From positions 1 through 17,162 of IMG/VR virus record IMGVR_UViG_2579778634_000010: a DNA stretch of 17,162 nucleotides; one strand, written 5' to 3'. This DNA is from a virus (taxonomy: Duplodnaviria; Heunggongvirae; Uroviricota; Caudoviricetes). Positions within the stretch are counted from its first letter, which is position 1. Every line of letters starts with the position of its first letter. Made by a program: the position numbers and the translations under genes. Shown piece after piece: positions 1,302-17,162 of the stretch. The notes under the pieces were generated by a model. That model saw nothing but the letters and a program-made list of their open reading frames with translations, had not been told where the DNA came from and did not search any database.

Positions 1302-1547
1302 TCACCGGATTACCACATCCCACTCCGGCTCCTGCCATCTCAAATCCGGTGAATCATTTCTCTCAGGAATAACCATTACGTCCTTTTCCCTTCGCTCCCT
1401 TTCTATCGCCATCACAGCCAATGCTGTAACCATGATGTATTTTTGTTCGTCGGTTCCTGTTTCATAACGACGCATGAGGGTAAACTCGGGGCGATCAGTA
1501 ACCTCAATGATTTCGTTAATTTCTTTAATTTCGCGAGGAATATCCAT
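1302..1547 (-). CDS. Hypothetical small acidic protein (81 aa)
   Basis: ATG at 1547 with AGGAG 9 nt upstream on the - strand; its start overlaps the + strand start of the DUF4145 gene at an NcoI-like CCATGG; perfect 10-bp inverted repeat TCACCGGATT/AATCCGGTGA (1302..1311, 1343..1352) at its 3' end. Confidence 0.3.
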   Translation of the reverse strand: MDIPREIKEINEIIEVTDRPEFTLMRRYETGTDEQKYIMVTALAVMAIERERREKDVMVIPERNDSPDLRWQEPEWDVVIR

Positions 1548-2220: not shown

Positions 2221-2252
2221 ATCACTTTTCTGAACACGTAAGCCCCCGTCAT

Positions 2253-2684: not shown

Positions 2685-2699
2685 AAGCACCTCCGGAGA

Positions 2700-3470
2700 T
2701 CACTTTGTTGTCGGTGAATGAACCGGAATATCAGCAATCGAACTGAAAATATCCCGGTGTTTATTCAGCTCCCGCAGCGCGGCGCAGACTCGCTCCCACT
2801 TCTGAACATCACTTTTCGCCCTGCGCAGCGCCAGGTTTGCCCTGCGCAGGGACGGAAAAATCAGCTCATCTGCTTGCGTTTCGGTAAACGATGGCAACGA
2901 CTGCACAATGTCCGCCACAGTTTCTGTTTTAATTTCTTCCTGTGTTGCGGCTTCCCGGACTGGTAACGCAGCACCTGCTGGCTGAGGAAAGGCCTTACCA
3001 TCATTTTCCGTTACCGGCGCGGTTTTCGGATCTGCTGGTAAATTACCCCCCGGCATGCAGTAACGAAATTTACCGTTCTGATTAACGCGTGCCAGCCGCC
3101 CCGTTGCGGTTACCACCGCCAGCGTGGAAGCAACCTTGCGAGTGGTAACTCCGAACTTACCCGCTATTTCTTCACAGGTTTTAGCCCCCTCCTGAGAGAT
3201 AAACTCAATCATCATGTCAGCGCTAACTTTTGGAGCGACCTCTTCGGTCAGCATATCCTGTGTTTCAGATTTTACTGGCCGCTCTTCGGTTACCCGGGAT
3301 TCACCTTCGACAGCCAGAAACCAGGTGTGACCCGTTTTATCAACAACGCCATTTTTTTTGAGTTCCCACAGTTCGTTGAGAACTTCTTCACGGCTGATAT
3401 CAAGCCGCGCCGCCAGTTCAACAGAATTGGCTTTTCCCATCGCTTTCAGTGCATGCAATACGGTTTCCAT
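2700..3470 (-). CDS. Hypothetical winged-helix-like prophage protein (256 aa); possibly DUF1627-type
   Basis: ATG 3470 with GAGGT 9 nt upstream; directly downstream of the DnaC-like gene; family name is from memory only. Confidence 0.65.
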   Translation of the reverse strand: METVLHALKAMGKANSVELAARLDISREEVLNELWELKKNGVVDKTGHTWFLAVEGESRVTEERPVKSETQDMLTEEVAPKVSADMMIEFISQEGAKTCEEIAGKFGVTTRKVASTLAVVTATGRLARVNQNGKFRYCMPGGNLPADPKTAPVTENDGKAFPQPAGAALPVREAATQEEIKTETVADIVQSLPSFTETQADELIFPSLRRANLALRRAKSDVQKWERVCAALRELNKHRDIFSSIADIPVHSPTTK

Positions 3471-3495
3471 CGAAAATTTACCTCGTCAAAAATTC

Positions 3496-4236
3496 TCACA
3501 TACCCTGACGTCCAACGTTTGACCGCCAGCTCTCCCAGTTAAAATTCACCCAACGACCACCATTCATGGTCATACGGTCCATCACTCGCTCCCCCAGAAG
3601 CCTGCTCATCGCACCGTGATTCAGGTTAGTCAGCATCCCGACACTGCGCAGTGATGCCGTTCTGCGGTCGACGATCTGGTTCAGTATGACCTGCTCGTTG
3701 CGCGTATCCCGCTGCATGCCAATTTCATCAAGGACCAGAAGGTCAACTCCACAAAGCTCCTGTAAAAATTTTTCCCCGGACTTGCCGTTGTCGTAGCCGT
3801 CATGCAACACACTCATGACATCGGACACGGTGACGATAATCACGCTTCTCCCCTTCGCCATTAGCCAGTTGCCAATCGCTGCTGCAAGGTGATTTTTCCC
3901 GGTGCCAGGTTTACCGCTGAACACGAAATTCGTGCAGCCGGTATGCAGCTCTGCCGCGATGGATTTTGCCTGACTCAGAGCATGGCGCTGACCGTCGTTC
4001 TGCACCCGGTAGTTCCCGAATGAGCACTTCCTGTGAAGCGGCTGGATGCCCGAACGGTTCAGGATTTTTTCAACCCGCGCCTGATGATTCAGGCGGTTAA
4101 TTTCCTCGCTGCGCTTACGGCCCTCAGCCAGTTGCCATTCCCGCCATTCGTCGGTCGTCCGGAACGGTGCTGCCACGTGCGGTGGTGCCAGACGGCGCAC
4201 CCGTTCAAGAATCCCTCCTGTCGAAATGTTTTTCAT
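3496..4236 (-). CDS. DnaC-like helicase loader (IstB-type AAA+ ATPase)
   Basis: 246 aa; Walker A GKPGTGKNHLA, Walker B LLVLDEIG; start 6 nt after the stop of the O-like gene. Confidence 0.85.
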   Translation of the reverse strand: MKNISTGGILERVRRLAPPHVAAPFRTTDEWREWQLAEGRKRSEEINRLNHQARVEKILNRSGIQPLHRKCSFGNYRVQNDGQRHALSQAKSIAAELHTGCTNFVFSGKPGTGKNHLAAAIGNWLMAKGRSVIIVTVSDVMSVLHDGYDNGKSGEKFLQELCGVDLLVLDEIGMQRDTRNEQVILNQIVDRRTASLRSVGMLTNLNHGAMSRLLGERVMDRMTMNGGRWVNFNWESWRSNVGRQGM

Positions 4237-4242
4237 GGCTGA

Positions 4243-5343
4243 TTACCCCCTGAAACCCGGCGGAATTTCGGTGTCCGGTTCAGAAATGTGATTCACGCAA
4301 CGCAGGCTGACTGCGCCAGCCTTCGGCAGCGACCACGGATTTTCGAAATTCCTGTTCGGGCCAAAAAACGTCGATGCCTGCTGAACAAATTCAGTTCCCG
4401 CTTTCCCGGTAGCCTCCAGGTATCTTGCGTAACGCCTCACGCCATCCAGCACGACATCCGGTGACACCCCTTCGCGTAATCTGGCCCTCCAGGCATTGAA
4501 CGCGGATTTCTTCGGGTTTGACCCTGCCCGATGCGGATATTCACGCCAGACCCGTTCGAACACGTCAGGATAATCAACTCGTCCCGCAGACGGTCCCGGC
4601 ATCGCCCGGGTTAACCCAATCGGCTTCCCGCTCATCGCGGAATCGGCTTCAGGCTGCTGCGGTTGGCGTTGTTGCTCCGGTTCGACGATCAGCACCTGCT
4701 GCACACAACGCCCGGAATCTGCTTCCGGTGTCGTGCCAGCTGGTCCTGGACGTTCAGTCAGAACAGGACAAAAATCCCCCTGCGGGTCCGTGGCGATTTT
4801 TTCGCCATGGACCAGAAGGGTTTTATCCCTTTCCTGTTCTTGTTCTTGTTCCTGTTCCTGTTCCTGTTCCTGTTCTTGGCTTGAAAGGGGCTCTGAAGGG
4901 GCTTCAATTTTCCGACATGATTCACGTCTGACATCCAGGTGGAAATCATCCTTATATCTATCATAAAAGGATGATAAAAAAGGATTTTCCAGCAACGCGG
5001 AATATTCATTTCTTACCCCAGCACAACGGTTATCGCCAGGTTTCAGCGATTCACCAACCTGCCATGCTGCCATTTCATGCACCCATACAACCTCAGAATC
5101 ATGGTCATAGCTGCAAAAACCAGCCTCGCAAGCCATTTGAAGCCCCTTAGAAGCCCCTTCAGGATCAAGTCCGGTTTCGTGAGCAATGTACAAAACAGGC
5201 AGGTAATAAAGGCCCAGCATATTGGAATGAGGCGAGGTCATCATATACAACGCCACTACCATACATTCCGGACCAGACTTCCTTAGTTTTCTCCCTGTTT
5301 CGCCTAACCAGAACTGAGGTGAAATTGTTGCGTAATTACGCAT
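4243..5343 (-). CDS. Replication initiation protein, O-like (YdaU/DUF1376-type) with internal (EQ)n tract
   Basis: 366 aa; position between the cII-like and DnaC-like genes; N-terminus MRNYATISPQFWLGETGRKL; acidic EQEQEQ tract; family assignment from memory. Confidence 0.7.
   Translation of the reverse strand: MRNYATISPQFWLGETGRKLRKSGPECMVVALYMMTSPHSNMLGLYYLPVLYIAHETGLDPEGASKGLQMACEAGFCSYDHDSEVVWVHEMAAWQVGESLKPGDNRCAGVRNEYSALLENPFLSSFYDRYKDDFHLDVRRESCRKIEAPSEPLSSQEQEQEQEQEQEQEQERDKTLLVHGEKIATDPQGDFCPVLTERPGPAGTTPEADSGRCVQQVLIVEPEQQRQPQQPEADSAMSGKPIGLTRAMPGPSAGRVDYPDVFERVWREYPHRAGSNPKKSAFNAWRARLREGVSPDVVLDGVRRYARYLEATGKAGTEFVQQASTFFGPNRNFENPWSLPKAGAVSLRCVNHISEPDTEIPPGFRG
4834..4875. repeat. 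Hexanucleotide tandem repeat (CTGTTC/TTGTTC) x7 encoding (EQ)n on the - strand
   Basis: Seven consecutive 6-bp units read directly; in frame within the O-like CDS. Confidence 0.9.
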
Positions 5344-5483
5344 AGTCCCCTCGCATACAAGATTTACTCCATACCGCAGACGGTCCCGGTATCTCCCGGG
5401 TTAACCCAATCGGCTTCAGGCTGCTGCGGTTGGTGTTGTTGCTGGCGAAATTCTTCCAGATGTGGCAGAATTATTCCCGTGTA

Positions 5484-5560
5484 TTGCTCCATGCCCTGCC
5501 TGAATATCAGATATTCATCAGGATTTGCTCAGAACGTCCGGCCCCAACCGGACGTTTTTT
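5484..5560 (+). ncRNA. oop: OOP-like antisense RNA overlapping the 3' end of the cII-like gene
   Basis: 3' portion CAUCAGGAUUUGCUCAGAACGUCCGGCCCCAACCGGACGUUUUUUAUU closely resembles the lambda oop 3' end as I remember it; terminator stem 5534..5541/5548..5555 plus U-run 5555..5560; antisense to the last ~18 codons of cII. The 5' end is placed by analogy to the 77-nt lambda RNA. Confidence 0.6.
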
Positions 5561-5803
5561 ATTTGCATGAACGTTAATGGCATGCTGGAAAGCCCGGCTG
5601 ATCGGACTGATATCAGATGCCATCTGAAACGCGCATAAAATCGCCGCGATGTATCGCCAGTCGGTACGACTGACCTTCGATTCATGGCAGCCAATCATCT
5701 TCGCCAGTCCCCTTTGCGTCAGAGCTGACAGGTTGATAAGTAAATCCGTTTCAGCGCGATCGATATCGCGCTGTGACAGTTTGCTGTAACTTGTTTGTGA
5801 CAT
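5507..5803 (-). CDS. cII: CII-like transcriptional activator
   Basis: 98 aa; C-terminus HANKKRPVGAGRSEQILMNI resembles lambda CII (TNKKRPAATERSEQIQMEF); AGGAAA 8 nt upstream; position after cro and nutR. Confidence 0.8.
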   Translation of the reverse strand: MSQTSYSKLSQRDIDRAETDLLINLSALTQRGLAKMIGCHESKVSRTDWRYIAAILCAFQMASDISPISRAFQHAINVHANKKRPVGAGRSEQILMNI

Positions 5804-5871
5804 TTGTTAATTTTCCTATATTGATATGGGGTTAAGCGGCAATCCCCAATGGGTTTGCCACTGATGTTTGC

Positions 5872-5912
5872 TCACCCTGTTAGAGGTGAACGACCAGCAA
5901 TGTTAAAGAGCG
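5872..5912 (-). promoter_or_regulatory. nutR candidate: boxA CGCTCTTTAA (5912..5903) plus boxB hairpin (5889..5872)
   Basis: On the - strand GCTCTTTAACATTG is shared with the nutL candidate; it is followed by a 5-bp stem with an 8-nt loop containing CUAA; lies just after the cro stop, as nutR does in lambda. Confidence 0.55.
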
Positions 5913-5919
5913 GTGTTAC

Positions 5920-6144
5920 TTATTCAGCCTGGTTCGGATGAGGAAACAGGTGCGGTAAGTCCGGGCGAATTTCGTAAGCCTTAACCTGACCATTGGTGGC
6001 ATTAACGATAGCGAAAACTTTTTCAGGAGAAACTTTTCCGCCTCGCAACCATTTATGAACAGCGGGCTGTGATACGCCGCAATCAGCTGCAAGTCGTTTT
6101 TGACTGCCAACAATATTCAAGGCTCGCTGAATCACTAAATTCAT
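5920..6144 (-). CDS. cro: Cro-like HTH repressor
   Basis: About 75 aa from ATG 6144 (AGAGGT upstream); HTH QKRLAADCGVSQPAVHKWLRG; divergent from the cI-like gene across the operator region. Confidence 0.75.
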   Translation of the reverse strand: MNLVIQRALNIVGSQKRLAADCGVSQPAVHKWLRGGKVSPEKVFAIVNATNGQVKAYEIRPDLPHLFPHPNQAE

Positions 6145-6170
6145 GAGCATACCTCTACAGCAAATAAAGC

Positions 6171-6254
6171 ATAACCAAAAATAACATGAGTTATACACCA
6201 GGGCAATAACAATTGTTGTTTTACTTTTGATAACCGTGGTTATAGATTACAGGT
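6171..6254. promoter_or_regulatory. OR-like region: three operators (6181..6194, 6206..6219, 6230..6243) with divergent PR/PRM
   Basis: Sites ATAACATGAGTTAT, ATAACAATTGTTGT, ATAACCGTGGTTAT spaced 24-25 bp; extra half-site ATAACC at 6171; TAGATT at 6243..6248 ends 7 nt before the cI ATG (lambda PRM -10 is TAGATT); TATAAC on the - strand overlaps the cro-proximal site. Confidence 0.7.
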
Positions 6255-6962
6255 ATGAAAACATTCGCAGAAAGACTAAATGCCGCCATGAGTTCAGCCG
6301 GGTTGTCACAAGCACAACTTGCAGACATGGTGGGGGTATCACAACCAGCCATACAAAAGATGTCATCTGGTAAAACAACCGGATCACGTAAAATGGTCGA
6401 ATTAGCCAACGCGTTAAGAGTTCGCCCTGAATGGCTAAGCTCTGGTATAGGGTCAATGAGACCACAGAGCGCAGAAGAGCCATCTAATGCTCGGGAATCA
6501 TCTTTAAAAGCTATCGCCTGGGATGATCATCAAAATGATAATGACGAATTTGTTGCGCTCCCCCTTCTAAATATTTCACTTTCAGCTGGCGGAGGAAGTT
6601 GTGCATTGGAGGAGTCCGCAGAATTCTCTCTAGTTTTTAGGCGCTATTACCTGAAAAAAATGGGAGTTCCAGAAAAAGCGGCAAAGTTGGTCAGGGTTGT
6701 TGGGCAAAGCATGGAGCCAACACTCCATGATGGTGATGTGGTGGGGGTAAACACGCAAGATACGAGCATCAGGGATGGTAAAACATATGCAATTTGCCAA
6801 GCTGATTTGTTAAGGGTAAAAACGCTCATAGCCACGCCAACATCGGTAATTATCAGATCGATAAACCGCGAAGAGTATCCTGATGAAGTAATGAACAGAG
6901 AAGAATTCTACAAAAACGTAAGAATCATAGGGCGAGTGTTCTGGTCATCACATAGCTGGTAA
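6255..6962 (+). CDS. cI: CI-like repressor (N-terminal HTH, C-terminal S24/LexA-type autoprotease domain)
   Basis: 235 aa; HTH LSQAQLADMVGVSQPAIQKM; catalytic Ser in GQSMEP and Lys in LLRVKTL; no SD, so probably leaderless as in lambda. Confidence 0.85.
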   Translation: MKTFAERLNAAMSSAGLSQAQLADMVGVSQPAIQKMSSGKTTGSRKMVELANALRVRPEWLSSGIGSMRPQSAEEPSNARESSLKAIAWDDHQNDNDEFVALPLLNISLSAGGGSCALEESAEFSLVFRRYYLKKMGVPEKAAKLVRVVGQSMEPTLHDGDVVGVNTQDTSIRDGKTYAICQADLLRVKTLIATPTSVIIRSINREEYPDEVMNREEFYKNVRIIGRVFWSSHSW

Positions 6963-7086
6963 TCAGACTCCAACTGAACTTTTGCTATAAGAACACTCAC
7001 GAAGAACGGCCTTTTATTGTGCTCAATACCACCGATGGTAAACCATTCGCCAAGTAGCCAATTCATAAAATGCCATTTCTAAATCC

Positions 7087-7112
7087 CCCGGCTCCAGTGC
7101 CGGGTTTTATTT
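7087..7112. terminator. Intrinsic terminator between convergent cI-like gene and the 7115..7336 gene
   Basis: Stem CCCGGC/GCCGGG with 6-nt loop followed by TTTTATTT on the + strand; U-rich on the - strand as well. Confidence 0.6.
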
Positions 7113-7114
7113 AC

Positions 7115-7336
7115 TTAATTACACAGTCGCATATCCTGAAGTAACACATCTATAGCTAACTTCACAGCGAGATCATCCAATTCATCATGGTGAAGCACTC
7201 GGATCATTCCCGCAATAGCATCTGCTGAAATAGCTTCCCCAGTAGCAATAACCTCAAGCAACGACACCCCTAGAATTTCGACTACCCGCTGGTGCAACAC
7301 ACCAAATTCCCCTTCGATTAACATGCAATCACCCAT
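7115..7336 (-). CDS. Hypothetical small protein in the rex-equivalent slot, antisense to cI
   Basis: About 73 aa from ATG 7336 (alternative ATG 7324; the track ORF starts at a TTG at 7381); terminator directly after its stop; no family recognised. Confidence 0.45.
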   Translation of the reverse strand: MGDCMLIEGEFGVLHQRVVEILGVSLLEVIATGEAISADAIAGMIRVLHHDELDDLAVKLAIDVLLQDMRLCN

Positions 7337-7410
7337 AACAATCAGCCTTTCCCCCTTGAAAATATCACGCGGATACCACAAAAAATAAAATATTTTTGTT
7401 ATCAGTCATT

Positions 7411-7472
7411 TATAACGTTTTTCATAAAATGATAAATATAGTTATTGCACAACCAGATAACTTAGGTTATCT
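7411..7472 (+). promoter_or_regulatory. OL-like operators (7431..7444, 7456..7469; weaker 7411..7424) and pL candidate
   Basis: ATAAATATAGTTAT and ATAACTTAGGTTAT share the OR consensus and 25-bp spacing; candidate -35 TTGCAC 7444..7449 and -10 TATCTT 7467..7472. Confidence 0.55.
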
Positions 7473-7518
7473 TCAATTCAACAGCAGGACGCTGGAAGCC
7501 AAACGGAACAGATTGGCC

Positions 7519-7559
7519 GGCTCTTTAACATTGATGGACTCTCAACCTAATCGTTGAGA
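7519..7559 (+). promoter_or_regulatory. nutL candidate: boxA GCTCTTTAA (7520..7528) plus boxB hairpin (7540..7559)
   Basis: GCTCTTTAACATTG shared with nutR; stem TCTCAAC/GTTGAGA with loop CUAAUC; between pL and the N-like gene. Confidence 0.55.
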
Positions 7560-7669
7560 CCAAAATCTAAGTGATTTTGGGGATGACGCGAATTTCAGTT
7601 GCAAGGCCGCGATCGAGAAGAAAAACACCTCGACGCGTCATACACCAAAGCCACTTAAAGGAGACCATC

Positions 7670-7975
7670 ATGGTAACCATAATCTGGAAAGAATCCAAAG
7701 GTACGGCAAAAAGCCGCTATAAAGCTCGCAGGGAAGAACTTATTGCAGAGCGACGCAGTAGTGAAAGACTGACACGGAAGATTGCGCTAAAGATCTCTGG
7801 TTGCGTCGGAGCAGACAAAGCAGTATCACTCGGAAGCCTTCGCTGCAAGAAGGCAGAAGAAGTCGAGAGTAAACAGAACCGTATTTACTACCGCAAACCA
7901 CGCAGTGAAATGGGTGTGACTTGCTCAGGCCGCCAGAAACAACGCGGAAAATCAATTCCGGCTTATTACGATTGA
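7670..7975 (+). CDS. N: N-like transcription antiterminator
   Basis: 102 aa from ATG 7670 (AAGGAG 6 nt upstream); arginine-rich N-terminus KSRYKARREELIAERRSSERLTRK; C-terminus YYRKPRSEMGVTCSGRQKQRGKSIP resembles lambda N (WYSKPGERGITCSGRQKIKGKSIP). Confidence 0.8.
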   Translation: MVTIIWKESKGTAKSRYKARREELIAERRSSERLTRKIALKISGCVGADKAVSLGSLRCKKAEEVESKQNRIYYRKPRSEMGVTCSGRQKQRGKSIPAYYD

Positions 7976-7980
7976 GGTTA

Positions 7981-8265
7981 ATGATGAAGTTCAAATTGAA
8001 CGATGAAGTTAAATGGTCAAGCTCATCAAACGGTGTAACGAAGGTAAAAATCGGGTTTATCGTCGAGGTGATTCCTCCTGGTGTCAACGTAAAAAAATTC
8101 GAACTAGGCCGTCTGCTAGATGCACCTGGCCTTCCGAGGAAAGAAGAGAGCTATATAGTTTGTGTAGGTTCAAGACCCGGATCTCGTGCCAAGCCAAAAT
8201 ATTACTGGCCGCGAGTTAATAACCTGCGTCGATTACAACAAAAAACTTGCGCCCTTAAAACTTGA
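7981..8265 (+). CDS. Hypothetical protein (94 aa)
   Basis: ATG 7981 with GAGG just upstream, 5 nt after the N stop; no family recognised. Confidence 0.55.
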   Translation: MMKFKLNDEVKWSSSSNGVTKVKIGFIVEVIPPGVNVKKFELGRLLDAPGLPRKEESYIVCVGSRPGSRAKPKYYWPRVNNLRRLQQKTCALKT

Positions 8266-8371
8266 AATTCTTCAGGCCGCCGGAAAAATGCAGCTTAAAC
8301 TGGACGAATTCATCGACTGTATGGATGAAATGAATAAAGCAGTTCAGAAGCTTAAAGAGCTGACCGCCTGA
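8186..8371 (+). CDS. Small ORF of uncertain start (61 aa from GTG 8186, or 27 aa from ATG 8288)
   Basis: Overlaps the 3' end of the previous gene in another frame; no convincing SD; helical KAVQKLKEL C-terminus. Confidence 0.25.
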   Translation: MPSQNITGRELITCVDYNKKLAPLKLEILQAAGKMQLKLDEFIDCMDEMNKAVQKLKELTA

Positions 8372-8402
8372 TATTAATAAATTGCAACTACCGGAGTTAA
8401 CT

Positions 8403-8762
8403 ATGAATGAAACAGAACTGAAGCACATTATCGCCCTGCTTCTGGAAGATGCCAGACAGGTTTATCGACTTAGCCCAAATTCCGCAACGCAGGAACGCAT
8501 CCGGATAGCGGAAACAGCACTGAAACAGGACAATGGAAACGGCATATCCAAATTTAGCGCCGCCAGTGAAAATGAAGTAATAGAAATAAACAGCAATATC
8601 AGCGACAGTTGCGTCGCTTACAGCCACCAAATAATTCGTGTAAGTGCAAGAATAATGGAAGTGATGGCAAGTGAGCTTGAAAAGAACAACATCAAGCCCA
8701 CTGATTGTTGTTTAAGAACCGTAATGAACGTTATTTATTACTCGATGTTCCGAAGTCGCTAA
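8403..8762 (+). CDS. Hypothetical protein (119 aa)
   Basis: ATG 8403 with GGAG 6 nt upstream; no family recognised. Confidence 0.6.
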   Translation: MNETELKHIIALLLEDARQVYRLSPNSATQERIRIAETALKQDNGNGISKFSAASENEVIEINSNISDSCVAYSHQIIRVSARIMEVMASELEKNNIKPTDCCLRTVMNVIYYSMFRSR

Positions 8763-8940
8763 CAGCGTCGAGTTTTTCATTAAAAAATGATTCAAATGCA
8801 TCGTAAAATACGGCAATAGCACCGCCCTTATCTACCGCGGCAGGAACTGCCTTTTGAGGTATATCTTTCTCCGTAAATTGTGTGTTGTAAGTATCGACAG
8901 CCAGCCGCATCAGAAACATCACTTTTTCTTCTTGTGTCAT
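8731..8940 (-). CDS. Hypothetical 69-aa protein on the opposite strand inside the pL operon (sieB-equivalent slot)
   Basis: ATG 8940 preceded by AAGGAGAG; 3' end overlaps the 8403..8762 gene by 32 bp; a ~440-bp noncoding region lies upstream. Confidence 0.55.
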   Translation of the reverse strand: MTQEEKVMFLMRLAVDTYNTQFTEKDIPQKAVPAAVDKGGAIAVFYDAFESFFNEKLDAVSDFGTSSNK

Positions 8941-9164
8941 AAATTCACTCTCCTTACGGGGTTTGTAGTTGAGGAGTTCTCCACGGGTGAGGTGGAGATC
9001 GTGCGCCGGACACGGGTGAGTTCCTGCACTCTCAGTTTACTGAACAGACATTACCCTGAAAGCCAGGGTACTACACGAAAGCGCGAGGCGAAGACTCTTT
9101 CCCATAGAAGGATTGTCGTTAGATTTCTTCGACCGTGCGCTTCCGGTTGTGAATAACAACATTG

Positions 9165-9220
9165 CTGTGTGTAACCCTTGGCGGATATCGGTTTGCCGAT
9201 TGCTGATGTCCGCCCTTTTT
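9165..9220 (+). ncRNA. DicF-like small RNA candidate
   Basis: UUGGCGGAUAUCGGUUUGCCGAUUGCUGAUGUCCGCCC followed by UUUUU (stem 9180..9185/9209..9214); resembles the DicF body and terminator as I remember them; sits just upstream of a cell-division-inhibitor-like gene. The 5' end is not defined. Confidence 0.4.
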
Positions 9221-9396
9221 AAAGTGAATTTTGTGATGCGGTGAATGCGGCTATGCGCACGCGGAACAGTTAAACCGACAGGATGTCACGGAAAGTCATC
9301 GTCCCCTGACCCGGCGTTAGTTGTTAACTGGTTAACGTCACCTGGAGGCACCAGGCACCGCATCAACAAAGTTCATTTGTGAAAATGGAGATAATT

Positions 9397-9618
9397 ATGA
9401 TTGCTCATCACTTCGGAACTGATGAAATACCACGTCAGTGCGTGACGCCTGGCGATTATGTTCTTCATGAAGGTCGGACATATATCGCTTCAGCAAACAA
9501 TATTGAAAAGAGAAAACTCTATATTCGTAACTTCACAACAAAAACATGCATTACCGACTGCATGATTAAAGTTTTCATCGGGCGCGATGGCTTACCCGTA
9601 AAAGCAGCGTCGTTGTGA
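9397..9618 (+). CDS. KilR-like small protein (candidate cell-division inhibitor)
   Basis: 73 aa from ATG 9397 (GGAG 6 nt upstream), the length of Rac KilR; position between the accessory genes and the recombination genes; identity from memory, not searched. Confidence 0.5.
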
Positions 9619-9701
9619 CGAGTAATAAAATACACCTTCCATATCTGTAACAGACAAGCCGAAATAAAACCGCATTAATTATCAATCACGGAAAAATCAA
9701 A

Positions 9702-10088
9702 ATGAAAGAACTTGCGCAAAATGAAATATTTTCCGAAACCAGTCCTGATGCAATAAATGAACTCAAAGAAATTGCAGAACGCATCAGTAAAATATGCAAA
9801 GAATACAAAATCGACTTTGTATTTTCTTTTTCAGTGCTTACAGAAGTTGGAAATAACGAATATAAGGACAGTCGTTTTGTTTTATGTGGGTTAAATGGCA
9901 AAACACCAAGCCCATATATTCATGCTGCACGTGAAGTCGTCAGAAGCAACATTGGAGTACAACAAATCCATACACTGGCGCAGGCTCTTGAGTTTGCAAG
10001 AGAAAATTCCGAGTGCGACTGCCCTGAATGCCAGCACGAAAAGGGAAAAACAACTCACAAAACAGCAAACCAGGCAACCTTCCACTGA
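9702..10088 (+). CDS. Hypothetical protein with C-terminal CDCPECQ Cys cluster (128 aa)
   Basis: Complete ORF, weak SD; sits where racC/ydaE lie in Rac-type prophages. Confidence 0.55.
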   Translation: MKELAQNEIFSETSPDAINELKEIAERISKICKEYKIDFVFSFSVLTEVGNNEYKDSRFVLCGLNGKTPSPYIHAAREVVRSNIGVQQIHTLAQALEFARENSECDCPECQHEKGKTTHKTANQATFH

Positions 10089-10095
10089 AATAAAA

Positions 10096-10122
10096 ATCCG
10101 GCAGCGCAGGCTACCGGATTTC
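10096..10122 (+). terminator. Weak hairpin / possible antiterminated terminator between genes
   Basis: Stem ATCCGG/CCGGAT with 12-nt loop followed by TTT; U-tract is short. Confidence 0.25.
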
Positions 10123-10195
10123 TCCCTGCGTCACCGTATTCGGAGAAATCAGACAAAGGGCCGCTAATTCTAATCCAGCCAGAGGTTTAAATACA

Positions 10196-12268
10196 ATGAG
10201 CGCTGATAAACAGACTTTTGCACTACACTGCGAAGCAAAAAACGATAAAGTCAGAAAACGCCTTGGCATCAAAGGCGGTTTTTTCTGGACCGAGGCCAGA
10301 AAACTTTCTGTCGCAGTTTCCCGCTGCATTGCAGCCATGGACGATGCAGGCTACGACGAGGATGATTTCAAAAAACCCGTTCGCGTAAATTTCCCCGTCG
10401 TGAATGACCTTCCACCGGAAGGCGTGTTTGATACTGAATTCTGCAACCGCTATGAAAAAGGCGGTAACGATGGCATCACCATGATGGCTATCCCCTTCGA
10501 TGACAACATCAACGGTGAAGATGCCACAACTGCTGGCGATGACAACGATAACCTGGACGGAACTATTCCGGATGATGTGGAGAAAAGCGAATCCCCGGAC
10601 AGCGACGATGACTGTTCTGAGTGTGAAATTCCCGTCGCCACTCTGAGCCTTACTCATCGCTTCCTTCACCTCTTCTTATTCAGCAAAGATGAAGATGGAA
10701 AATACCGGCATCATGCCACACCAGAACAACGCAATAACGTGATCCGTATGGAGATGGACACAGAGGACAGTTACCTTCAGAGCCTGCTTACTGCTGTGCG
10801 CGCCGCGCATCATGAACTGGATAAACTGACGAACTATCACCTTAGTCGCCTGGCTGAATCTGTAGGGAAAGCATTCCCCCACTCTGCAAATCATCGCATC
10901 AGCCCGGCTGAATTCGACAAGTTCATTTCCACCTGGATGAAAACTGACTACCTTGATCAGGGCCTGCTGACAAAAGAATGGCAGAACGGAAATTATGTTT
11001 CAGGCATTACCCGTACGCCTTCCGGTGCTAACGCTGGCGGCGGAAATATTACCGATCGTGGTGAAGGATTCAAACATGATAAGACATCACTCGCACGAGA
11101 TGTAGCCACCGGCGTTCTGGCCCGTTCAATGGATGTGGATATTTATAACCTGCACCCAGCACACGCAAAACGCGTTGAAGAAATCGTGTCAGAGAATAAG
11201 CCGCCCTTTTCTGTTTTTCGCGACAAATTTATCGCCATGCCCGGTGGGCTGGATTATTCCCGCGCCATTGTGGTGGCTTCCGTGAAAGAAGCACCAATCG
11301 GCATTGAGGCCATCCCGGCACGCGTGACTGAATATCTCAACAAAGTGTTGACCGAAACCGATCACGCTAACCCGGATCCGGAAATCGTGGAAATTGCCTG
11401 CGGTCGCTCATCAGCACCGATGCCGCAGCGCGGAACAGCAGAAGGAAAACATGGCGATGAAGAAAAGCAACAAGCATCGGACACAATGGCTAATGAACAG
11501 GCAGCGCCTGAATCAGTGGAAGAAATTCCAGTTAAACATAATGAGGACACGCAATCACTGGAAAATGTCTCATCTGTAGAAACGAAATACCAGGAACTGA
11601 GGGAGGAACTCAATAAAGCCAGGGAAAACATCCCCCCAAAAAATCCAGTCGATGCCGACAAATTACTGGCTGCCTCGCGTGGAGAATTCGTTGAAGGCAT
11701 CAGTAACCCTGCTGATCCGAAGTGGGTTAAGGGGATCCAGACTCGCGACACTGAGGACCAGAATCAGTCCAAAGTGGAACAAATTGCCCCAGAAGCGGGA
11801 CAAAACAGCCCGGATACGCAACAAAACGGGCCAGAAGAGCAACAGCCAGGGCCAGTAATGCAACAGGAAGTGGAAAAGGTTTGCACCACATGCAGTCAGA
11901 ACGGTGGCGGCCATTGCCCTGACTGTGGTCCAGTAATGGGAGATGAAACTTACGCTGAAACTTTTGGAGAAAATGACGCCGCTGATGGAGAAGACTCAGC
12001 ACAAACTGAGGAGAAGATCATTCAGGAAAACTCTGTTGATGCCGCTCAGGAGGGCGAAACCGTTGTTCAGAACGAGCCAGGCAGTGATACGTCCGGCGAT
12101 GACGCCAATTCTGAGCCAGTAACTCTCGACTGGAAAAGACAGCTCGTGATTGCCGCCGTCTATGGTTTGTGCGCCAACCCCGCATGTATAGCCACAGCGC
12201 CAGCAATCCCTGATATCGCCATCATGATTGCCAACAGGCTTGAAAATTTCGGAGGTGATAAATCATGA
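10196..12268 (+). CDS. Large acidic low-complexity protein (690 aa), possibly related to the RecE N-terminal region, without a nuclease domain
   Basis: Uninterrupted 2073-nt ORF; D/E-rich tracts; CxxC...CxDC near the C-terminus; stop overlaps the gam start (ATGA); the RecE resemblance is from memory. Confidence 0.8.
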
Positions 12269-12561
12269 ATGCCTGGCTTATCCCCGATCGCATTGAAGAG
12301 CAGTCATGGGCACGACACTACCAGCAAATTGCCCGTGAAGAAACTGAAGCTGAGCTGGCAGACGACCTGGAAAAAGGTCTGCCCCAACACCTGTTTGAAT
12401 CGCTATGCATCGATAATCTGCAACGTCACGGGGCCAGCAAAAAAGCTATTTCCCGTGCATTTGATGACGATGTCGATTTTCAGGAACGCATGGCAGAACA
12501 CATCCGCTACATGGCTGAAACCATCGCCCGTCACCAAATTAATATTGATTCAGAGGTATAA
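12265..12561 (+). CDS. gam: Gam, host RecBCD inhibitor (short GamS-length form)
   Basis: 98 aa; [50 protein letters not shown] close to lambda Gam; GGAGGT 8 nt upstream. Confidence 0.9.
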
Positions 12562-12566
12562 AACGG

Positions 12567-13352
12567 ATGAGTACAGCACTCGCAACGCTGGCAGGGAAGC
12601 TGGCTGAACGTGTCGGCATGGATTCTGTCGACCCACAGGAACTAATCACCACTCTTCGCCAGACGGCATTTAAAGGTGATGCCAGCGATGCGCAATTTAT
12701 CGCATTGTTGATCGTCGCCAACCAGTACGGCCTTAATCCCTGGACGAAAGAAATTTACGCCTTCCCTGACAAGCAAAACGGCATCGTTCCGGTGGTTGGC
12801 GTTGATGGCTGGTCCCGCATTATCAATGAAAACCAGCAGTTTGATGGCATGGACTTTGAGCAGGACAATGAGTCCTGTACATGCCGGATTTACCGCAAAG
12901 ATCGCAATCACCCGATCTGCGTTACCGAGTGGATGGATGAATGTCGCCGCGCACCATTCAAAACCCGCGAAGGCAGAGAAATCACCGGACCGTGGCAGTC
13001 GCATCCCAAACGGATGTTACGGCACAAAGCCATGATTCAGTGTGCTCGCCTGGCCTTCGGATTTGCTGGCATCTATGACAAGGATGAAGCCGAGCGTATT
13101 GTCGAAAATACTGCATATACTACAGAACGTCAGCCGGAACGCGACATCACCCCGGTTAACGAAGAAACCATGTCGGAAATTAACGCCCTTCTTACTTCCA
13201 TGGAAAAAACGTGGGATGACGACCTGTTGCCGCTCTGTTCCCAGATTTTTCGCCGCAACATTTACACATCTTCAGAACTAACACAGGCTGAAGCTGTGAA
13301 GGTTCTTGGATTCCTGAAACAGAAAGTCACAGAGCAGAAGGTAGCAGCATGA
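12567..13352 (+). CDS. bet: Bet (Red-beta) single-strand annealing protein
   Basis: 261 aa, near-identical to lambda Bet as remembered ([50 protein letters not shown]...). Confidence 0.95.
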
Positions 13353-14026
13353 CACCGGACATTATCCTGCAACGTACAGGGATCGACGTGAGAGCTGTCG
13401 AACAGGGGGATGATGCGTGGCACAAATTACGGCTCGGCGTCATCACCGCTTCAGAAGTTCACAACGTGATAGCAAAACCCCGCTCAGGAAAGAAATGGCC
13501 TGACATGAAAATGTCCTACTTCCACACCCTGCTGGCTGAGGTTTGCACCGGTGTGGCTCCGGAAGTTAACGCTAAAGCGCTGGCCTGGGGAAAACAGTAC
13601 GAGAACGACGCCAGAGCCCTCTTTGAGTTCACTTCCGGCGTGAATGTTACTGAATCCCCGATCATCTATCGCGACGAAAGTATGCGCACCGCTTGCTCTC
13701 CCGATGGTTTATGCAGTGACGGCAACGGCCTTGAACTGAAATGCCCGTTTACCTCCCGGAATTTCATGAAATTCCGGCTCGGTGGTTTCGAGGCCATAAA
13801 GTCGGCTTACATGGCCCAGGTGCAGTACAGCATGTGGGTGACACGAAAAGATGCCTGGTACTTTGCCAACTATGACCCGCGTATGAAGCGTGAAGGACTG
13901 CATTATGTCGTGGTCGAACGGGATGAAAAATACATGGCTGGTTTTGACGAAATGGTGCCAGAGTTCATCGAAAAAATGGACGAGGCACTGGCTGAAATTG
14001 GTTTTGTATTTGGGGAGCAATGGTGA
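13349..14026 (+). CDS. exo: Exo (Red-alpha) 5'-3' exonuclease
   Basis: 225 aa, near-identical to lambda Exo as remembered ([54 protein letters not shown]...); ATGA overlap with bet. Confidence 0.95.
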
Positions 14027-14077
14027 TAGCCAGTAGCAACGAGGTGCAAATGATATGACAATTAAGGAATACTACCG

Positions 14078-14329
14078 GTGTTCGTTCTAATCCAGCGCGG
14101 GCAGTCTTTCGTCGATGCCAACAACTATCCGGTTGAAGTCTGCAAAATCACTCTGACGCAGGTAATCTTCCGCAGGCTGGATGGGAGAACCAGAGCCGCT
14201 TCAATTAGCGCATTTAATGCAGAATTTGAGCGAATCGATCACAACGAACTACACATGATTAAAGCAGAAATTGAGAAGGAAAAGCATATTGCCAGCCTTC
14301 GAAAAATGCGCCGCATATCAATCAACTGA
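14078..14329 (+). CDS. Hypothetical small ORF (83 aa, GTG start)
   Basis: No SD; only support is the strong intrinsic terminator 2 nt after its stop. Confidence 0.3.
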   Translation: MFVLIQRGQSFVDANNYPVEVCKITLTQVIFRRLDGRTRAASISAFNAEFERIDHNELHMIKAEIEKEKHIASLRKMRRISIN

Positions 14330-14330
14330 C

Positions 14331-14351
14331 AACCGCCTTCGGGCGGTTTTT
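14331..14351 (+). terminator. Intrinsic terminator with UUCG tetraloop upstream of xis
   Basis: AACCGCC-TTCG-GGCGGTT followed by a T-run to 14351. Confidence 0.7.
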
Positions 14352-14363
14352 AATGGCGAAAAT

Positions 14364-14735
14364 ATGGATTCACACAGTATCACCCTCAAAGAGGCCTGTA
14401 AGTTTCTCAAGATATCAAGGCCAACAGCTGTTAACTGGATACGAACGGGCCGACTACAGGCAACCCGAAAAAATTCTTCCGGTAAAAGATCACCTTATCT
14501 CACAACCCGGCAAGCCTGCATTGCAGCACTTCATTCACCGCTGCATACTGTCCAGGTGAGCGCGGGTGATGGCATAACAGAGGAAAGAAAATGTCACTCT
14601 TCCGCAGAGGTGAAATATGGTACGCCTCGTACTCGCTCCCGGGCGGGAAGCGAATTAAGGAGTCTCTTGGCACAAAGGACAAGCGGCAAGCTCAGGAGTT
14701 GCACGACAAGCGAAAAGCAGAACTCTGGCGAGTAG
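14364..14735 (+). CDS. xis: Excisionase (Xis/YdaQ-like)
   Basis: N-terminal [31 protein letters not shown] is a typical excisionase HTH; the ORF stays open 145 nt into int, so the C-terminal extent is uncertain. Confidence 0.6.
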
Positions 14736-15754
14736 ACAGACTGGGGGATATGCCAGATGTCACTTTCGAAGAAGCCTGCCTGAGATGGCTTGAGGAAAAA
14801 GCCGACAAGAAATCCATCGATTCCGATAAATCCAGAATCGCATTCTGGATTGAGCATTTCGAGGGAATAAGGATTAAGGATATATCGGAGGCAATGATCT
14901 ACTCAGTTATCAGCAAAGCGTATAACCGAAAAACAAAGGAGAGATGGAAGTTGCAGGTGGAGGCTGCATTAAGAAAAGGGAAAGAACCACCAGCCTATAT
15001 ACCTAAATCGGTGAGCACGCAAACAAAAGCAACACACCTGGCAATGATCAAGGCTATTCTGCGCGCCGCAGAGCGAGACTGGAAATGGCTTGAAAAAGCA
15101 CCTGTAATCAAAATACCTGCCGTAAAAAACAAACGCGTGAGATGGCTGGAAAAAGAAGAAGCCAGGAGACTCATTGATGCATGTTCTGATCCCCTGAAAT
15201 CTGTAGTTAAATTTGCACTGGCAACTGGCCTGAGGAGATCAAACATTATTAATCTGGAGTGGCAACAAATCGATATGCAGCGACGTGTTGCCTGGGTAAA
15301 CCCTGAAGACAGTAAGTCAAACCGCGCTATTGGGGTCGCACTGAATGACACTGCCTGCAAGGTGTTGCGTGATCAAATAGGCAAACATCACCGCTGGGTG
15401 TTTGTTTATACCACTGCTGCCAGAAGGCCTGACGGGACAATGACACCAAGCATCAGAAAGATGCGCCTGGACTATAACACATCGTGGTTAACAGCATGTC
15501 GTCGGGCAGGAATTGAAAATTTCCGTTTTCATGACCTCCGCCATACCTGGGCCAGTTGGTTAATTCAGTCAGGTGTACCACTGTCAGTACTTCAGGAAAT
15601 GGGCGGCTGGGAGTCTATCGAAATGGTGCGTAGGTACGCACACCTTGCACCTAATCATTTGACAGAGCACGCGAGGAAAATTGACGACATATTGGGTGAC
15701 GATGTCCCAAATTTGTCCCACCCTGAGGTTTTTGAGGATGCAAAGAAAGCATAA
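14591..15754 (+). CDS. int: Tyrosine recombinase / phage integrase (Rac IntR-like)
   Basis: 387 aa; GAGGAAAG upstream; catalytic motifs [25 protein letters not shown]; N-terminus resembles Rac IntR as remembered. Confidence 0.95.
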
Positions 15755-15886
15755 GTAATTGAATTAGAATGAGTTAAGCTCACGCTTTCAAGTGGTGAGC
15801 AACAACTTTAAAGTTGGTTACGTATCGTTTAAAATCAATTAGATAGCCCGTCATTTCTGCGCTCACACGTCCCAACATTGAAAAAC

Positions 15887-15920
15887 ATGCAAAGCTTTGT
15901 AAGCCGATGCAAAGCTTTGT
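15887..15920. repeat. Two 14-bp direct repeats ATGCAAAGCTTTGT (15887..15900, 15907..15920), each with palindrome CAAAGCTTTG
   Basis: Read directly; 20-bp periodicity, 130 bp downstream of int; candidate arm-type or regulator sites. Confidence 0.5.
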
Positions 15921-16009
15921 GTGTCTCACTTTTGTCCCAATACCAATCCGAATCCACCCTTTGTCATCATTGAGAAATGGCAAGGAAGAAAAGGATGTTA
16001 CTGCACGAT

Positions 16010-16039
16010 TTGACAAATCCGCCAGAGCTATCGCATACT
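16010..16039 (+). promoter_or_regulatory. Promoter candidate TTGACA-N18-CATACT upstream of ant cassette 1
   Basis: Consensus -35 TTGACA (16010..16015); matched by TTGACG-N18-TATACT (16520..16549) at the equivalent place in cassette 2. Confidence 0.4.
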
Positions 16040-16065
16040 GATCGCACTGAACAAATAAGCGGTCT

Positions 16066-16093
16066 CCGCACCCGATAGCTTTGCGGCTTTTTT
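16066..16093 (+). terminator. Intrinsic terminator in the leader of ant cassette 1
   Basis: Stem CCGCA/TGCGG followed by CTTTTTT; about 50 nt downstream of the promoter candidate. Confidence 0.6.
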
Positions 16094-16257
16094 ATGCCTG
16101 CAATTTGGCATAGTTACATCCGTACAAAGGTCGGGTGGAGAGGCGTAATACAACACCCGCAAGGGGAATATGCCCAGAGCTTCTTATTTGGCTCAGTTGA
16201 CACCCGACCGCCAGCTACTAACTGGCGGTTATAAACTAAACAAATAAGGAGGTCATC

Positions 16258-16542
16258 ATGACCAGTCAACTCATCCCCGTATTCAACGGTTCTATCTCAA
16301 ACCAAGCAGCCCTTCTATGCAATGCTCGCAATCTACACGCTTTCCTTGGGGTTGGTAAACGCTTTGCATCGTGGATAACAGAACGTATTGCTGAATATGG
16401 TTTCGTTGAAAATCAGGACTATATGATTGCTTCCCAAATTCGGGAAGCAAAAGGTAGAGGCGGTCACAACCGCAAGGAATACCACCTCACCCTCGACACA
16501 GCCAAAGAGCTTGCGATGGTTGACGACTGCGTCCAATACTGA
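16258..16542 (+). CDS. AntA-domain protein (94 aa), truncated paralog of the downstream antirepressor
   Basis: AAGGAGG 6 nt upstream; MTSQLIPVF...GFVENQDY...EYHLTLDTAKELAMV parallels copy 2, then ends after 7 unrelated residues. Confidence 0.7.
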   Translation: MTSQLIPVFNGSISNQAALLCNARNLHAFLGVGKRFASWITERIAEYGFVENQDYMIASQIREAKGRGGHNRKEYHLTLDTAKELAMVDDCVQY

Positions 16543-16549
16543 CTATACT
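16520..16549 (+). promoter_or_regulatory. Promoter candidate TTGACG-N18-TATACT upstream of ant cassette 2
   Basis: Same architecture as 16010..16039; overlaps the stop codon of copy 1. Confidence 0.4.
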
Positions 16550-16589
16550 CCGCGCCGAGGCCTCGAAAACCTCCCAAAAGCGGATTAAA

Positions 16590-16616
16590 CCAACCCCGTC
16601 AGTGTTGGATTTTTTA
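16590..16616 (+). terminator. Intrinsic terminator in the leader of ant cassette 2
   Basis: Stem CCAAC/GTTGG followed by ATTTTTT; followed by the same TTTTTATGCCTG as in cassette 1. Confidence 0.6.
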
Positions 16617-16791
16617 TGCCTGTTATTCAGTGATAGCACAGTGTGCGGTCACATCCCCGATCAATGTCGGGAGGGCGACGAATACAACACCCGCAAGGGG
16701 AATAAGTCCGCGGTATCTTTTGGGCCGTTTCGAGCCTCCCGGCACCACATCTTGTGGTGGCATTTCTCGAAAAAAGCCAAAGGAGGTCATC

Positions 16792-17162
16792 ATGACCACT
16801 CAACTCATCCCTGTGTTTGAAGGTACAATCTCAAATGAACCTACGCTTCTGGTGAACGCGCGTGATTTGCATGGATTTTTAGAGGTAGGTAAAGATTTTT
16901 CTAACTGGATACGGGCCAGGCTAAACGAGTATGGATTCGTAGAAAATTTAGACTACATTCTATTTTCGCCAAATTTGGCGAAAACTCCAGGCCGCCGCCG
17001 CAAGGATTACCACCTCACCCTCGACACAGCCAAAGAGCTTGCGATGGTTGAACGTAACGAAAAAGGCCGCCAGATACGCCGCTACTTCATCGAGTGCGAA
17101 AAGAAACTTCGCAACATTCAGCCAGTACAAGCAGAACCACAGCCGCAATTCACAGCCGAGGA
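16792..17162 (+). CDS. AntA/AntB-type antirepressor, N-terminal part (3' end beyond window)
   Basis: AAGGAGG 6 nt upstream; MTTQLIPVFEGTISNEPTLLVNARDLHGFLEVGKDFSNWIRARLNEYGFVENLDYILFS...YHLTLDTAKELAMVERNEKGRQIRRYFIECEKKLR; open to the window end. Confidence 0.7.
   Translation, partial: MTTQLIPVFEGTISNEPTLLVNARDLHGFLEVGKDFSNWIRARLNEYGFVENLDYILFSPNLAKTPGRRRKDYHLTLDTAKELAMVERNEKGRQIRRYFIECEKKLRNIQPVQAEPQPQFTAE

Follow-up and report, generated by a model that had tools for sequence, protein, structure and literature searches.

Tandem sRNA-Xcc1 units in a Stx-type lambdoid phage as candidate P1 immI-type RNA switches of antirepressor genes

At one end of a 17,162-nucleotide (nt) stretch of phage DNA (positions 1 to 17,162 of the IMG/VR record IMGVR_UViG_2579778634_000010, Caudoviricetes; hereafter the window), two consecutive units each precede an open reading frame (ORF) of the AntA antirepressor type. 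We propose, with a probability of roughly 80%, that each unit is an RNA switch of the P1 immI (c4) type, which would control the antirepressor (ant) gene behind it and would be built on the fold of a known small RNA (sRNA) family, sRNA-Xcc1. The decisive feature goes beyond an original prediction that a model had made from the letters alone: a variable loop and a variable junction of each RNA are complementary to the Shine–Dalgarno (SD) region just downstream and to a duplicate of these boxes upstream, and boxes and complements change together from locus to locus.

Unit 1 (16010–16260) and unit 2 (16520–16794) contain the same set of parts, given below with (+) for the plus strand. In each RNA, b′ is the loop of hairpin 2 and a′ lies in the 3′ junction; b2 and a2 are the two boxes just downstream to which they are complementary, and b1 and a1 are the upstream copies of these boxes.

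Unit 1
16010–16039 (+): promoter candidate, sigma-70-like, TTGACA-N18-CATACT; the position of TTGAC is kept family-wide
16046–16050 and 16052–16059 (+): upstream target copies a1 (ACTGA) and b1 (CAAATAAG), at the predicted 5′ end of the transcript
16059–16062 (+): GCGG motif
16066–16086 (+): predicted terminator hairpin CCGCA/TGCGG with loop CCCGATAGCTT, followed by a T6 run at 16088–16093
16129–16217 (+): c4-like RNA (sRNA-Xcc1), 69.1 bits
16129–16137/16201–16209 (+): closing stem of the RNA; hairpin 1 with the 24-mer at 16147–16170; hairpin 2 at 16177–16194
16180–16190 (+): b′ loop CTTCTTATTTG; a′ TCAGT at 16193–16197; GCCA tail at 16210–16213
16208–16228 (+): hairpin after the RNA, CCGCCAG/CTGGCGG, overlapping the GCCA tail
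16235–16239 (+): a2, ACTAA (imperfect)
16241–16251 (+): b2, CAAATAAGGAG; SD AAGGAGG at 16246–16252; ATG at 16258
16258–16542 (+): truncated AntA-domain ORF (PF08346), 94 amino acids (aa), ending LAMVDDCVQY-stop

Unit 2
16520–16549 (+): promoter candidate, sigma-70-like, TTGACG-N18-TATACT, with its −35 on the recombination junction
16557–16573 (+): a1 hairpin GAGG/CCTC, with a1 (CTCGAAA, 16562–16568) in its loop
16573–16580 (+): b1, CCCAAAAG
16580–16583 (+): GCGG motif
16590–16608 (+): predicted terminator hairpin CCAAC/GTTGG with loop CCCGTCAGT, followed by a T6 run at 16610–16615
16666–16751 (+): c4-like RNA (sRNA-Xcc1), 73.4 bits
16666–16674/16735–16743 (+): closing stem of the RNA; 24-mer at 16681–16704; hairpin 2 at 16710–16728
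16715–16723 (+): b′ loop ATCTTTTGG; a′ TTTCGAG at 16728–16734; ACCA tail at 16744–16747
16743–16759 (+): hairpin after the RNA, CACCACA/TGTGGTG, overlapping the ACCA tail
16766–16772 (+): a2, CTCGAAA
16777–16784 (+): b2, CCAAAGGA; SD AAGGAGG at 16780–16786; ATG at 16792
16792–17162 (+): full-length AntA/AntB antirepressor gene, running off the window; 207–209 aa in relatives

The repeated pieces that the original prediction had picked out are where it placed them: the promoter candidates, TTTTTATGCCTG (16089 and 16611), the identical 24-mer (starting at 16147 and 16681, 111 nt before the ATG codons at 16258 and 16792) and AAGGAGGTCATCATG (16246 and 16780), the last of which leads into the AAGGAGG-N5-ATG start of an AntA gene in both units. 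The stretch between 24-mer and ATG is indeed of equal length and different sequence in the two units, but measures 87 nt rather than 88 (61% identity gapped, 38/87 ungapped); outside the conserved pieces the units are 58–61% identical. The terminator had been put about 50 nt past the promoter, which holds for unit 1; in unit 2 it lies about 60 nt past the −10. Both candidates are weak, with 5-base-pair stems, loops of 11 nt (unit 1) and 9 nt (unit 2) and a T6 run, and neither was listed by a generic terminator scan that allowed loops of ≤8 nt. Inspection of both promoters by eye revealed no convincing LexA box.

The RNA of each unit matches the Rfam family sRNA-Xcc1 (RF02221) over the whole model (1–87 of 87), well above the gathering score of 53 bits, and the match takes in the closing stem, the 24-mer and the second hairpin. 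The long-range stem that had been drawn around the 24-mer is the closing stem of this family. Likewise, the suggestion of an attenuator or a target of a small RNA was right as to a regulatory RNA and incomplete as to its role, as the element is itself a small RNA and not a target or attenuator alone. From 120 IMG/VR loci carrying the core motif we built a covariance model and realigned its 108 hits, 98 of them distinct. In this alignment, which was fitted to the covariance model, 95.3% of cells are paired, double changes occur in 18 of the 21 pairs and the covariation score is 0.525, compared with 0.07–0.09 in controls with slid partners. Covariation of the stems in homologous viral loci, and with it a functional RNA kept by compensatory change, is what had been foreseen. 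A plain MAFFT alignment analysed with RNAalifold recovered only 7 pairs, because the closing stem is one column out of register in a subfamily; realignment to the covariance model fixed this. The closing stem of each unit is thus well supported and belongs to a known RNA family.

Two further features accompany the fold. A tail of the form RCC(A/C) lies ≤4 nt from the closing stem in around 80 of the 98 members, including both units of the window, and a tail of this kind fits a substrate of RNase P. The hairpin that follows the RNA, which had been noted ahead of the ATG in both units, recurs at the same place with different sequences across the family; a stem of at least 6 base pairs is found in 81% of members and in 45% of shuffled sequences, a control that discriminates only moderately. 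The 24-mer core itself is widespread, occurring in Pseudomonas, Xanthomonas, Bartonella, Neisseria, Haemophilus, Azospirillum, Desulfovibrio and some non-proteobacterial metagenome-assembled genomes, and Northern blotting and end mapping in Xanthomonas (Xcc 8004) show sRNA-Xcc1 as a separate RNA species of 88 nt (PMC2996969). The Rfam models C4 (RF01695), c4-a1b1 (RF03163) and isrK (RF01394) have no match in 15800–17162 at E values up to 10; C4 and c4-a1b1 both match P1, and the isrK model matches 464–541 of the window on the minus strand.

In unit 1, the b′ loop pairs with b2, making 11 pairs when G–U is allowed, and makes 8 Watson–Crick pairs with b1, the upstream copies reading ACTGA-A-CAAATAAG. 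In unit 2, b′ (TCTTTTGG, 16716–16723) pairs with b2 and a′ pairs with a2. In both units b2 overlaps the SD, and the copies a1 and b1 open the predicted transcript (16046–16059 in unit 1; CTCGAAA to CCCAAAAG, 16562–16580, in unit 2). The box sequences differ between the units and the complementarity is kept inside each.

We measured this complementarity across the family as the longest Watson–Crick run between the variable parts of the RNA and their targets, comparing cognate with label-permuted loci (5,000 permutations) in two collections: 68 non-redundant IMG/VR loci with a recognisable start codon, and 68 non-redundant loci from genome contigs, one genome per species. Between b′ and the 20 nt before the start codon, the mean run was 6.63 compared with 4.17 after permutation in the viral set (z = 21.8; 20.7 in the genome contigs), and between a′ and positions −70 to −16 it was 6.43 compared with 4.72 (z = 14.2 and 14.4, respectively). 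The upstream region gave 7.26 compared with 5.41 for b′ (z = 16.8 and 15.8) and 7.57 compared with 5.38 for a′ (z = 15.9 and 18.9). For all four pairings, none of the 5,000 permutations reached the observed value. Controls stayed low, at z = 1.1 and −0.3 in the viral set (coding region and same-sense) and z = 2.5 in the genome set. In nearly all loci listed, the b2 match takes in the 5′ part of the SD and stops 4–14 nt short of the start codon. Duplex energies from RNAduplex on target windows of 140–170 nt proved too noisy (−23.2 kcal/mol for downstream cognates compared with −20.2 kcal/mol), and run statistics were used instead.

The same arrangement is found in front of a different kind of gene. 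In Xanthomonas arboricola pv. populi (locus L201, approximately 1855–2200), b′ TCTTCGAG and a′ TGTTCA match CTCGAAGGA, which lies over the SD, and TGAACA, and these boxes stand in front of an ORF for a SymE-like toxin. From its boxes, the same switch appears to provide antitoxin-like control of a toxin gene here, and a reported symE–Xcc1 integron cassette agrees with this arrangement.

Upstream of the RNA, a second module is conserved. A run of at least five T residues lies 25–150 nt upstream in 84 of 106 elements, and a hairpin abuts it in 76 of 78 distinct modules. The stems of these hairpins are diverse (CCGC/GCGG, CAAC/GTTG, TCAC/GTGA, CACG/CGTG and others), the loop carries the motif CCCG(A/T)(T/C)AG in 68 of 78 modules and (G/A)CG(G/T) follows b1 in 71 of 78. 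A TTGAC lies 55–115 nt (mostly 85–94 nt) ahead of the T-run in 45 of 60 and 61 of 71 modules, compared with 7 of 106 and 3 of 106 control windows. The complement of a′, a1, sits in the loop of a small hairpin in 56 of 77 members, unit 2 included; unit 1 belongs to a subfamily that lacks this hairpin. Shuffle controls discriminate poorly for the upstream hairpins (chance alone gives 52 of 77 for the one at a1), and the diversity of the stems and the position of a1 in the loop are therefore the stronger evidence. The hairpins were called sequence by sequence rather than from an alignment; RNAalifold on an alignment of the upstream short RNAs returned no structure, and the MAFFT registers were inconsistent. 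The GCGG motif could pair with CCGC or CCGU, on the 5′ side of the terminator hairpin or in its loop, as an antiterminator or an H-type pseudoknot; two loci (L033 and L040) have GCGT together with TGCG, a possible double change. Both the (G/A)CG(G/T) after b1 and the CCCG(A/T)(T/C)AG loop are also seen in P1 (locus L125, 678–712).

The conserved hairpin, T-run and promoter candidates are what a short RNA of the IsrK type with a target mimic would have, termination and read-through being predicted. In Gifsy-1, the short IsrK RNA ends at a leaky terminator, and read-through yields a processed RNA, STnc1160, and the antirepressor mRNA (PMC4825925). We regard the a1b1–terminator module, conserved alongside the RNA, as a putative partner RNA that is absent from Rfam. 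The window itself holds a third c4-type module, on the minus strand (299–577), with a promoter at 577–548, isrK at 541–464 and an Rfam C4 RNA at 438–354, followed by a2 (TTTGCAC), b2 (ATCAACCAGAGG) over the SD and an ATG at 299–297 that opens a gene with an ORF6N domain. Its a1 (TTTGCAC) lies in an isrK hairpin loop and its specificity differs from those of units 1 and 2; judged by its boxes, this module follows the same logic as the two units. Together with the Gifsy-1 findings and an isrK–C4 unit found inside an Xcc1-type array (below), it is the reason why we read the promoter-proximal terminated RNA of the units as a probable counterpart of IsrK.

In the switch that we propose, one conserved promoter would give a transcript that carries, in order, a1, b1, the weak terminator, the RNA of around 88 nt, the hairpin, a2, b2 over the SD and the start of ant. 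Transcripts that read through would yield the RNA, probably excised by RNase P at the base of the closing stem, as for c4. By pairing with a2 and b2, in trans or in cis, the RNA would block the ribosome, so that Ant stays off in the lysogen. Termination would instead give RNAs of around 50–60 nt with a1 and b1, target mimics able to titrate the antisense RNA, so that the efficiency of the terminator would set the switch. The variable boxes, which differ between units 1 and 2 at both positions, would define the specificity of immunity.

Several observations weigh against this proposal. The pairings are short (8–11 base pairs), and minimum-free-energy co-folding of the RNA with its targets gains only 0 to −5.8 kcal/mol, a small gain because loop–loop contacts cannot be modelled. 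The a2 box of unit 1 is imperfect (ACTAA facing a′ TCAGT), and the variable region of unit 1 pairs with the SD region of unit 2 at −17.8 kcal/mol, compared with −21.8 kcal/mol for its cognate, so orthogonality through b alone is incomplete. The units have none of the small coupled ORFs found in P1 (icd) and Gifsy-1 (orf45); the AntA ORF follows immediately on b2 and the SD. As the models of the C4 clan match neither unit, the kinship with c4 is one of architecture and not of sequence. Finally, promoters, terminators, processing and action in trans are, at both units, predictions from sequence.

The tandem arrangement raises a separate question. Stand-alone E. coli cassettes share homology up to query position 424, which is window position 16523, inside the −35 of unit 2, so that copy 1 is cut exactly where homology to full-length ant ends, as the original prediction had it. 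A 54-nt block directly ahead of this junction (16470–16523 and 16998–17051) matches at 53 of 54 positions between ORFs with 68% identity elsewhere, and probably marks where recombination or gene conversion exchanges the proximal units. The RNA and leader of type 1 stand alone with a full-length Ant of 207–209 aa in 12 of 19 viral contigs and are truncated and followed by unit 2 in 6. In the relatives compared, the same LAMVDDCVQY-stop junction always stands ahead of unit 2 and its promoter, and the proximal slot in front of unit 2 holds at least five self-consistent specificities (CAAATAAG, CTTCAAAG, ACGTCAG, TCGAAAG and TGCAAAG). Such swapping in front of an invariant junction supports, at the level of sequence comparison, the cassette recombination from which the array had been supposed to derive.

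Loci with several copies make up around 5% of each collection. The most extended is an Xcc1-type array of five units with a period of around 382 nt (L073, 7460–10143; IMG/VR UViG_2595698223_000002), which has five self-consistent sets of boxes and a full-length ORF, Bro-N-like and of 197 aa, only in the last unit. Its first unit (at 7569) consists of the RNA only, lacking SD and ORF, and an isrK–C4 unit stands between the first and second, so that module types are interchangeable. For Xylella, a five-copy Xcc1 array (sXF1–5) has likewise been reported, with transcripts from all five copies (PMC12189769).

With every RNA part kept and an ORF of 94 aa, unit 1 is either an orphan immunity unit or a relic. 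We give serious weight, at somewhat less than even odds, to the reading that unit 1 was left behind, inert, by recombination between two ant cassettes and that unit 2 alone matters to the phage. The point where the ORF of unit 1 breaks off falls on the −35 of unit 2, the near-identical block sits directly ahead, and NCBI annotates the ORF as partial. Against a relic, promoter, a1 and b1, terminator, RNA, a2 and b2, SD and a frame of 94–95 codons are all intact in six or more divergent alleles, which have at least five box specificities at the same junction; in the unrelated five-unit array, too, the RNA parts are full while the last ORF alone is complete. Neither observation proves selection, because recombination can import alleles.

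A more tentative idea is that head-to-tail arrays are expandable repertoires of RNA-based immunity. The last unit alone would control the antirepressor of the phage itself; orphan units, which keep promoter, decoy, RNA and leader while the gene is truncated or gone, would silence the antirepressors of heteroimmune phages. The resident prophage might in this way be protected from induction by competitors, and the proximal slot would be exchanged at the conserved block inside ant. The occurrence elsewhere of the type-1 specificity with a full-length Ant, the five or more proximal specificities, the L073 array and the Xylella transcripts support this idea, which we nevertheless hold as a possibility rather than an expectation.

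For both units, the reading as c4-type switches competes with a leader that acts purely in cis, in which a′ and b′ would pair with a2 and b2, or with a1 and b1, within one transcript, as an attenuator or structural switch of termination and SD access. All complementary parts of each unit do lie on one transcript, the long isrK transcript has a cis-inactive conformation (PMC4825925), and the GCGG/CCGC/GCGG sequences permit alternative pairings around the terminator. We nonetheless consider this improbable: sRNA-Xcc1 and STnc1160 accumulate as discrete small RNAs, P1 c4 works in trans and defines heteroimmunity according to PMC5320573 and a review (PMC12197685), and RNA-only orphans such as the first unit of L073 have no cis target for control of translation.

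Published work frames Xcc1 and the sXF RNAs as free-standing virulence regulators that act in trans on host or plant-host mRNAs, with many predicted targets (PMC2996969; PMC12189769). For the RNAs studied here we judge that role very unlikely, as in both collections changes in the variable loop and junction go along with changes in the adjacent leader, and a seed that differs in almost every locus is ill suited to a conserved host target. Control of the P22 sar type, by an opposite-strand antisense RNA across the ant ribosome-binding site, is known for P22 ant genes (PMC12197685) and had been offered as an analogy, but we dismiss it here, given that a scan of the minus strand in 15700–17162 found no promoter-like site and that the co-varying complements all lie on the plus strand.

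The genes behind these RNAs fit the preferred reading of c4-type antirepressor switches. Across the family, 49 of 67 diverse downstream ORFs have domains of the antirepressor type (KilA-N 12, Bro-N 10, Rha 8, AntA 7, P22_AR_N 6 and ORF6N 6); the other 18 are short and without a Pfam match. In the window, each RNA ends 41–46 nt ahead of an ant ATG on the same strand. Both ORFs score above the Pfam gathering score for PF08346, the first with 89.8 bits (profile positions 1–66 of 68) and the second with 95.1 bits; the truncated ORF, at 94 aa, is a nearly complete AntA domain.

The window is a circular permutation of the genome of a Stx-type lambdoid phage (Sepvirinae), with the following landmarks.

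1–15800 (within): replication genes and RecE/Bet/exonuclease genes
6255–6959: LexA-like CI repressor
14591–15754: tyrosine integrase

From around 15807 on, the DNA has an identity of 99.8–100% with the far end of E. coli prophages inserted in ynfG, of 99.8% with Escherichia phage PhiR5_2 and of 94% with Shigella phage 75/02 Stx. In chromosomes, the int and ant ends are around 60 kilobases apart, which together with the match to the prophage edge places the locus just inside attP; both units neighbour int when the genome is circular and lie at the edge of the prophage once integrated. The interval from the att junction (around 15807) to the promoter of unit 1 contains ATGCAAAGCTTTGT twice, at 15885–15924. 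Each copy includes the palindrome CAAAGCTTTG, and the two form a 17-base-pair hairpin with a T-rich tail. This hairpin may be a site for a recombinase or regulator or, in the prophage, may insulate against host transcription that reads through from ynfF. Downstream of the second ant gene, in E. coli JNEC-KY204 (L001, 7812–10280), genes annotated as PAPS-reductase-like, IbrB-like and Panacea-domain proteins are accessory or defence-type cargo at the prophage edge.

Related cassettes occur in around 10% of complete E. coli genomes, and the control of antirepressors bears on the induction of Stx-type prophages and on cross-talk between prophages. If our reading is right, the widespread sRNA-Xcc1, discussed so far as a virulence sRNA with unknown targets, would gain a concrete mechanism and a cis-encoded target, as a c4-like guard of antirepressor genes and, in Xanthomonas integron cassettes, of a SymE-like toxin gene. 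If true, the array idea would add a layer to competition between phages, and the short, modular specificity boxes are attractive for orthogonal translational switches.

Among known systems, P1 immI is the closest, and the layout of the units matches it part by part, which supports the P1/P7 c4 model of ant control put forward in the original prediction. By annotation and sequence, P1 immI consists of the promoter P1c4, a1 (TTTGACA), b1 (TGTTAGTG), the 77-nt c4, a2, and b2 over the SD of icd; after b1 it reads GCGG-ACAA-CCGC-AGATTTCCGATATT-GCGG-TATTTTT, that is, GCGG-CCGC, CCGATA and GCGG followed by a T-run. The units share with it the order of promoter, a1, b1, GCGG–hairpin–T-run, structured RNA, a2, b2 over the SD and gene on one strand. 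They also share the position of b′ (CACTAAC in P1 c4) in the loop of hairpin 2 and of a′ (TGTCAA) in the 3′ junction. A CC-rich tail after the closing stem is likewise common to the units and P1/P7 immI, as are, by prediction for the units, the control of an antirepressor and the definition of specificity by the boxes. According to the summary in PMC5320573, RNase P excises c4 from the operon transcript, and c4 blocks the ribosome-binding site through b′. Unlike P1 and P7, the RNA of the units belongs to the Xcc1 covariance-model family rather than C4 and has an invariant hairpin 1 (AAUACAAnACCCGnAAGGGGAA), the phage is lambdoid with a LexA-like CI, and the units are in tandem with differing specificities; no P1-like operator of the C1 type was recognised at the unit promoters.

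The Gifsy-1 locus, isrK–STnc1160–orf45–anrP, has STnc1160 at the position of the Rfam C4 match, and the short IsrK pairs with the long transcript and activates translation of anrP in trans (PMC4825925). Like it, the units are predicted to have a promoter-proximal short RNA, a leaky terminator and read-through, and the predicted short RNA is complementary to the RNA downstream; the minus-strand module at 299–577 of the window is of precisely the Gifsy-1 type. They differ in that isrK has two hairpins before the terminator, unit 2 one and unit 1 none, and in matching no isrK model; orf45 is missing, and activation by the short RNA is inferred here. An ORF of 46 codons at 16094–16234, which starts at the ATG of TTTTTTATGCC and covers the whole unit 1 RNA, recalls orf45, which overlaps STnc1160/C4; it has no counterpart in unit 2, where the same ATG opens only 5 codons, and is for this reason probably non-coding. 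The CI RNA of P4, with seqA and seqC, which the authors of the IsrK study drew into comparison (PMC4825925), is likewise an RNA processed from a leader with complementary copies upstream and downstream, but acts by transcription termination and controls replication genes. The microRNA-size 24B_1 of phi24B, a proposed regulator of d_ant, is encoded elsewhere (in the lom region) and is not this element.

In Acinetobacter baumannii, Group 1 C4-like sRNAs are present in many copies per genome, are processed from longer transcripts and have variable a′ loops, and their authors raised the idea that such copies may target incoming phages (PMC5320573). These are of the Rfam C4 type and dispersed, unlike the units, with no adjacent co-varying targets or head-to-tail arrays of truncated ant genes described. 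sRNA-Xcc1 itself, from Xanthomonas integrons and Xylella, agrees with the RNAs of the units in length (around 88 nt) and in tandem arrangement, with five copies in the Xylella array. In the papers searched it is presented as a trans-acting virulence sRNA with targets that are unknown or in the host, or is merely noted upstream of a symE or ORF6N gene, and our search of the open-access literature found no description of Xcc1 as a c4-type regulator, of its a1b1 module, of a link to antirepressors or of such arrays. The a1b1–terminator module joins P1 a1/b1, Gifsy-1 IsrK and the present units in one design. The c4-type switch and the Xcc1 family were known; what would be new is the assignment of a P1 immI-type mechanism to Xcc1, its conserved partner RNA and its heterospecific arrays.

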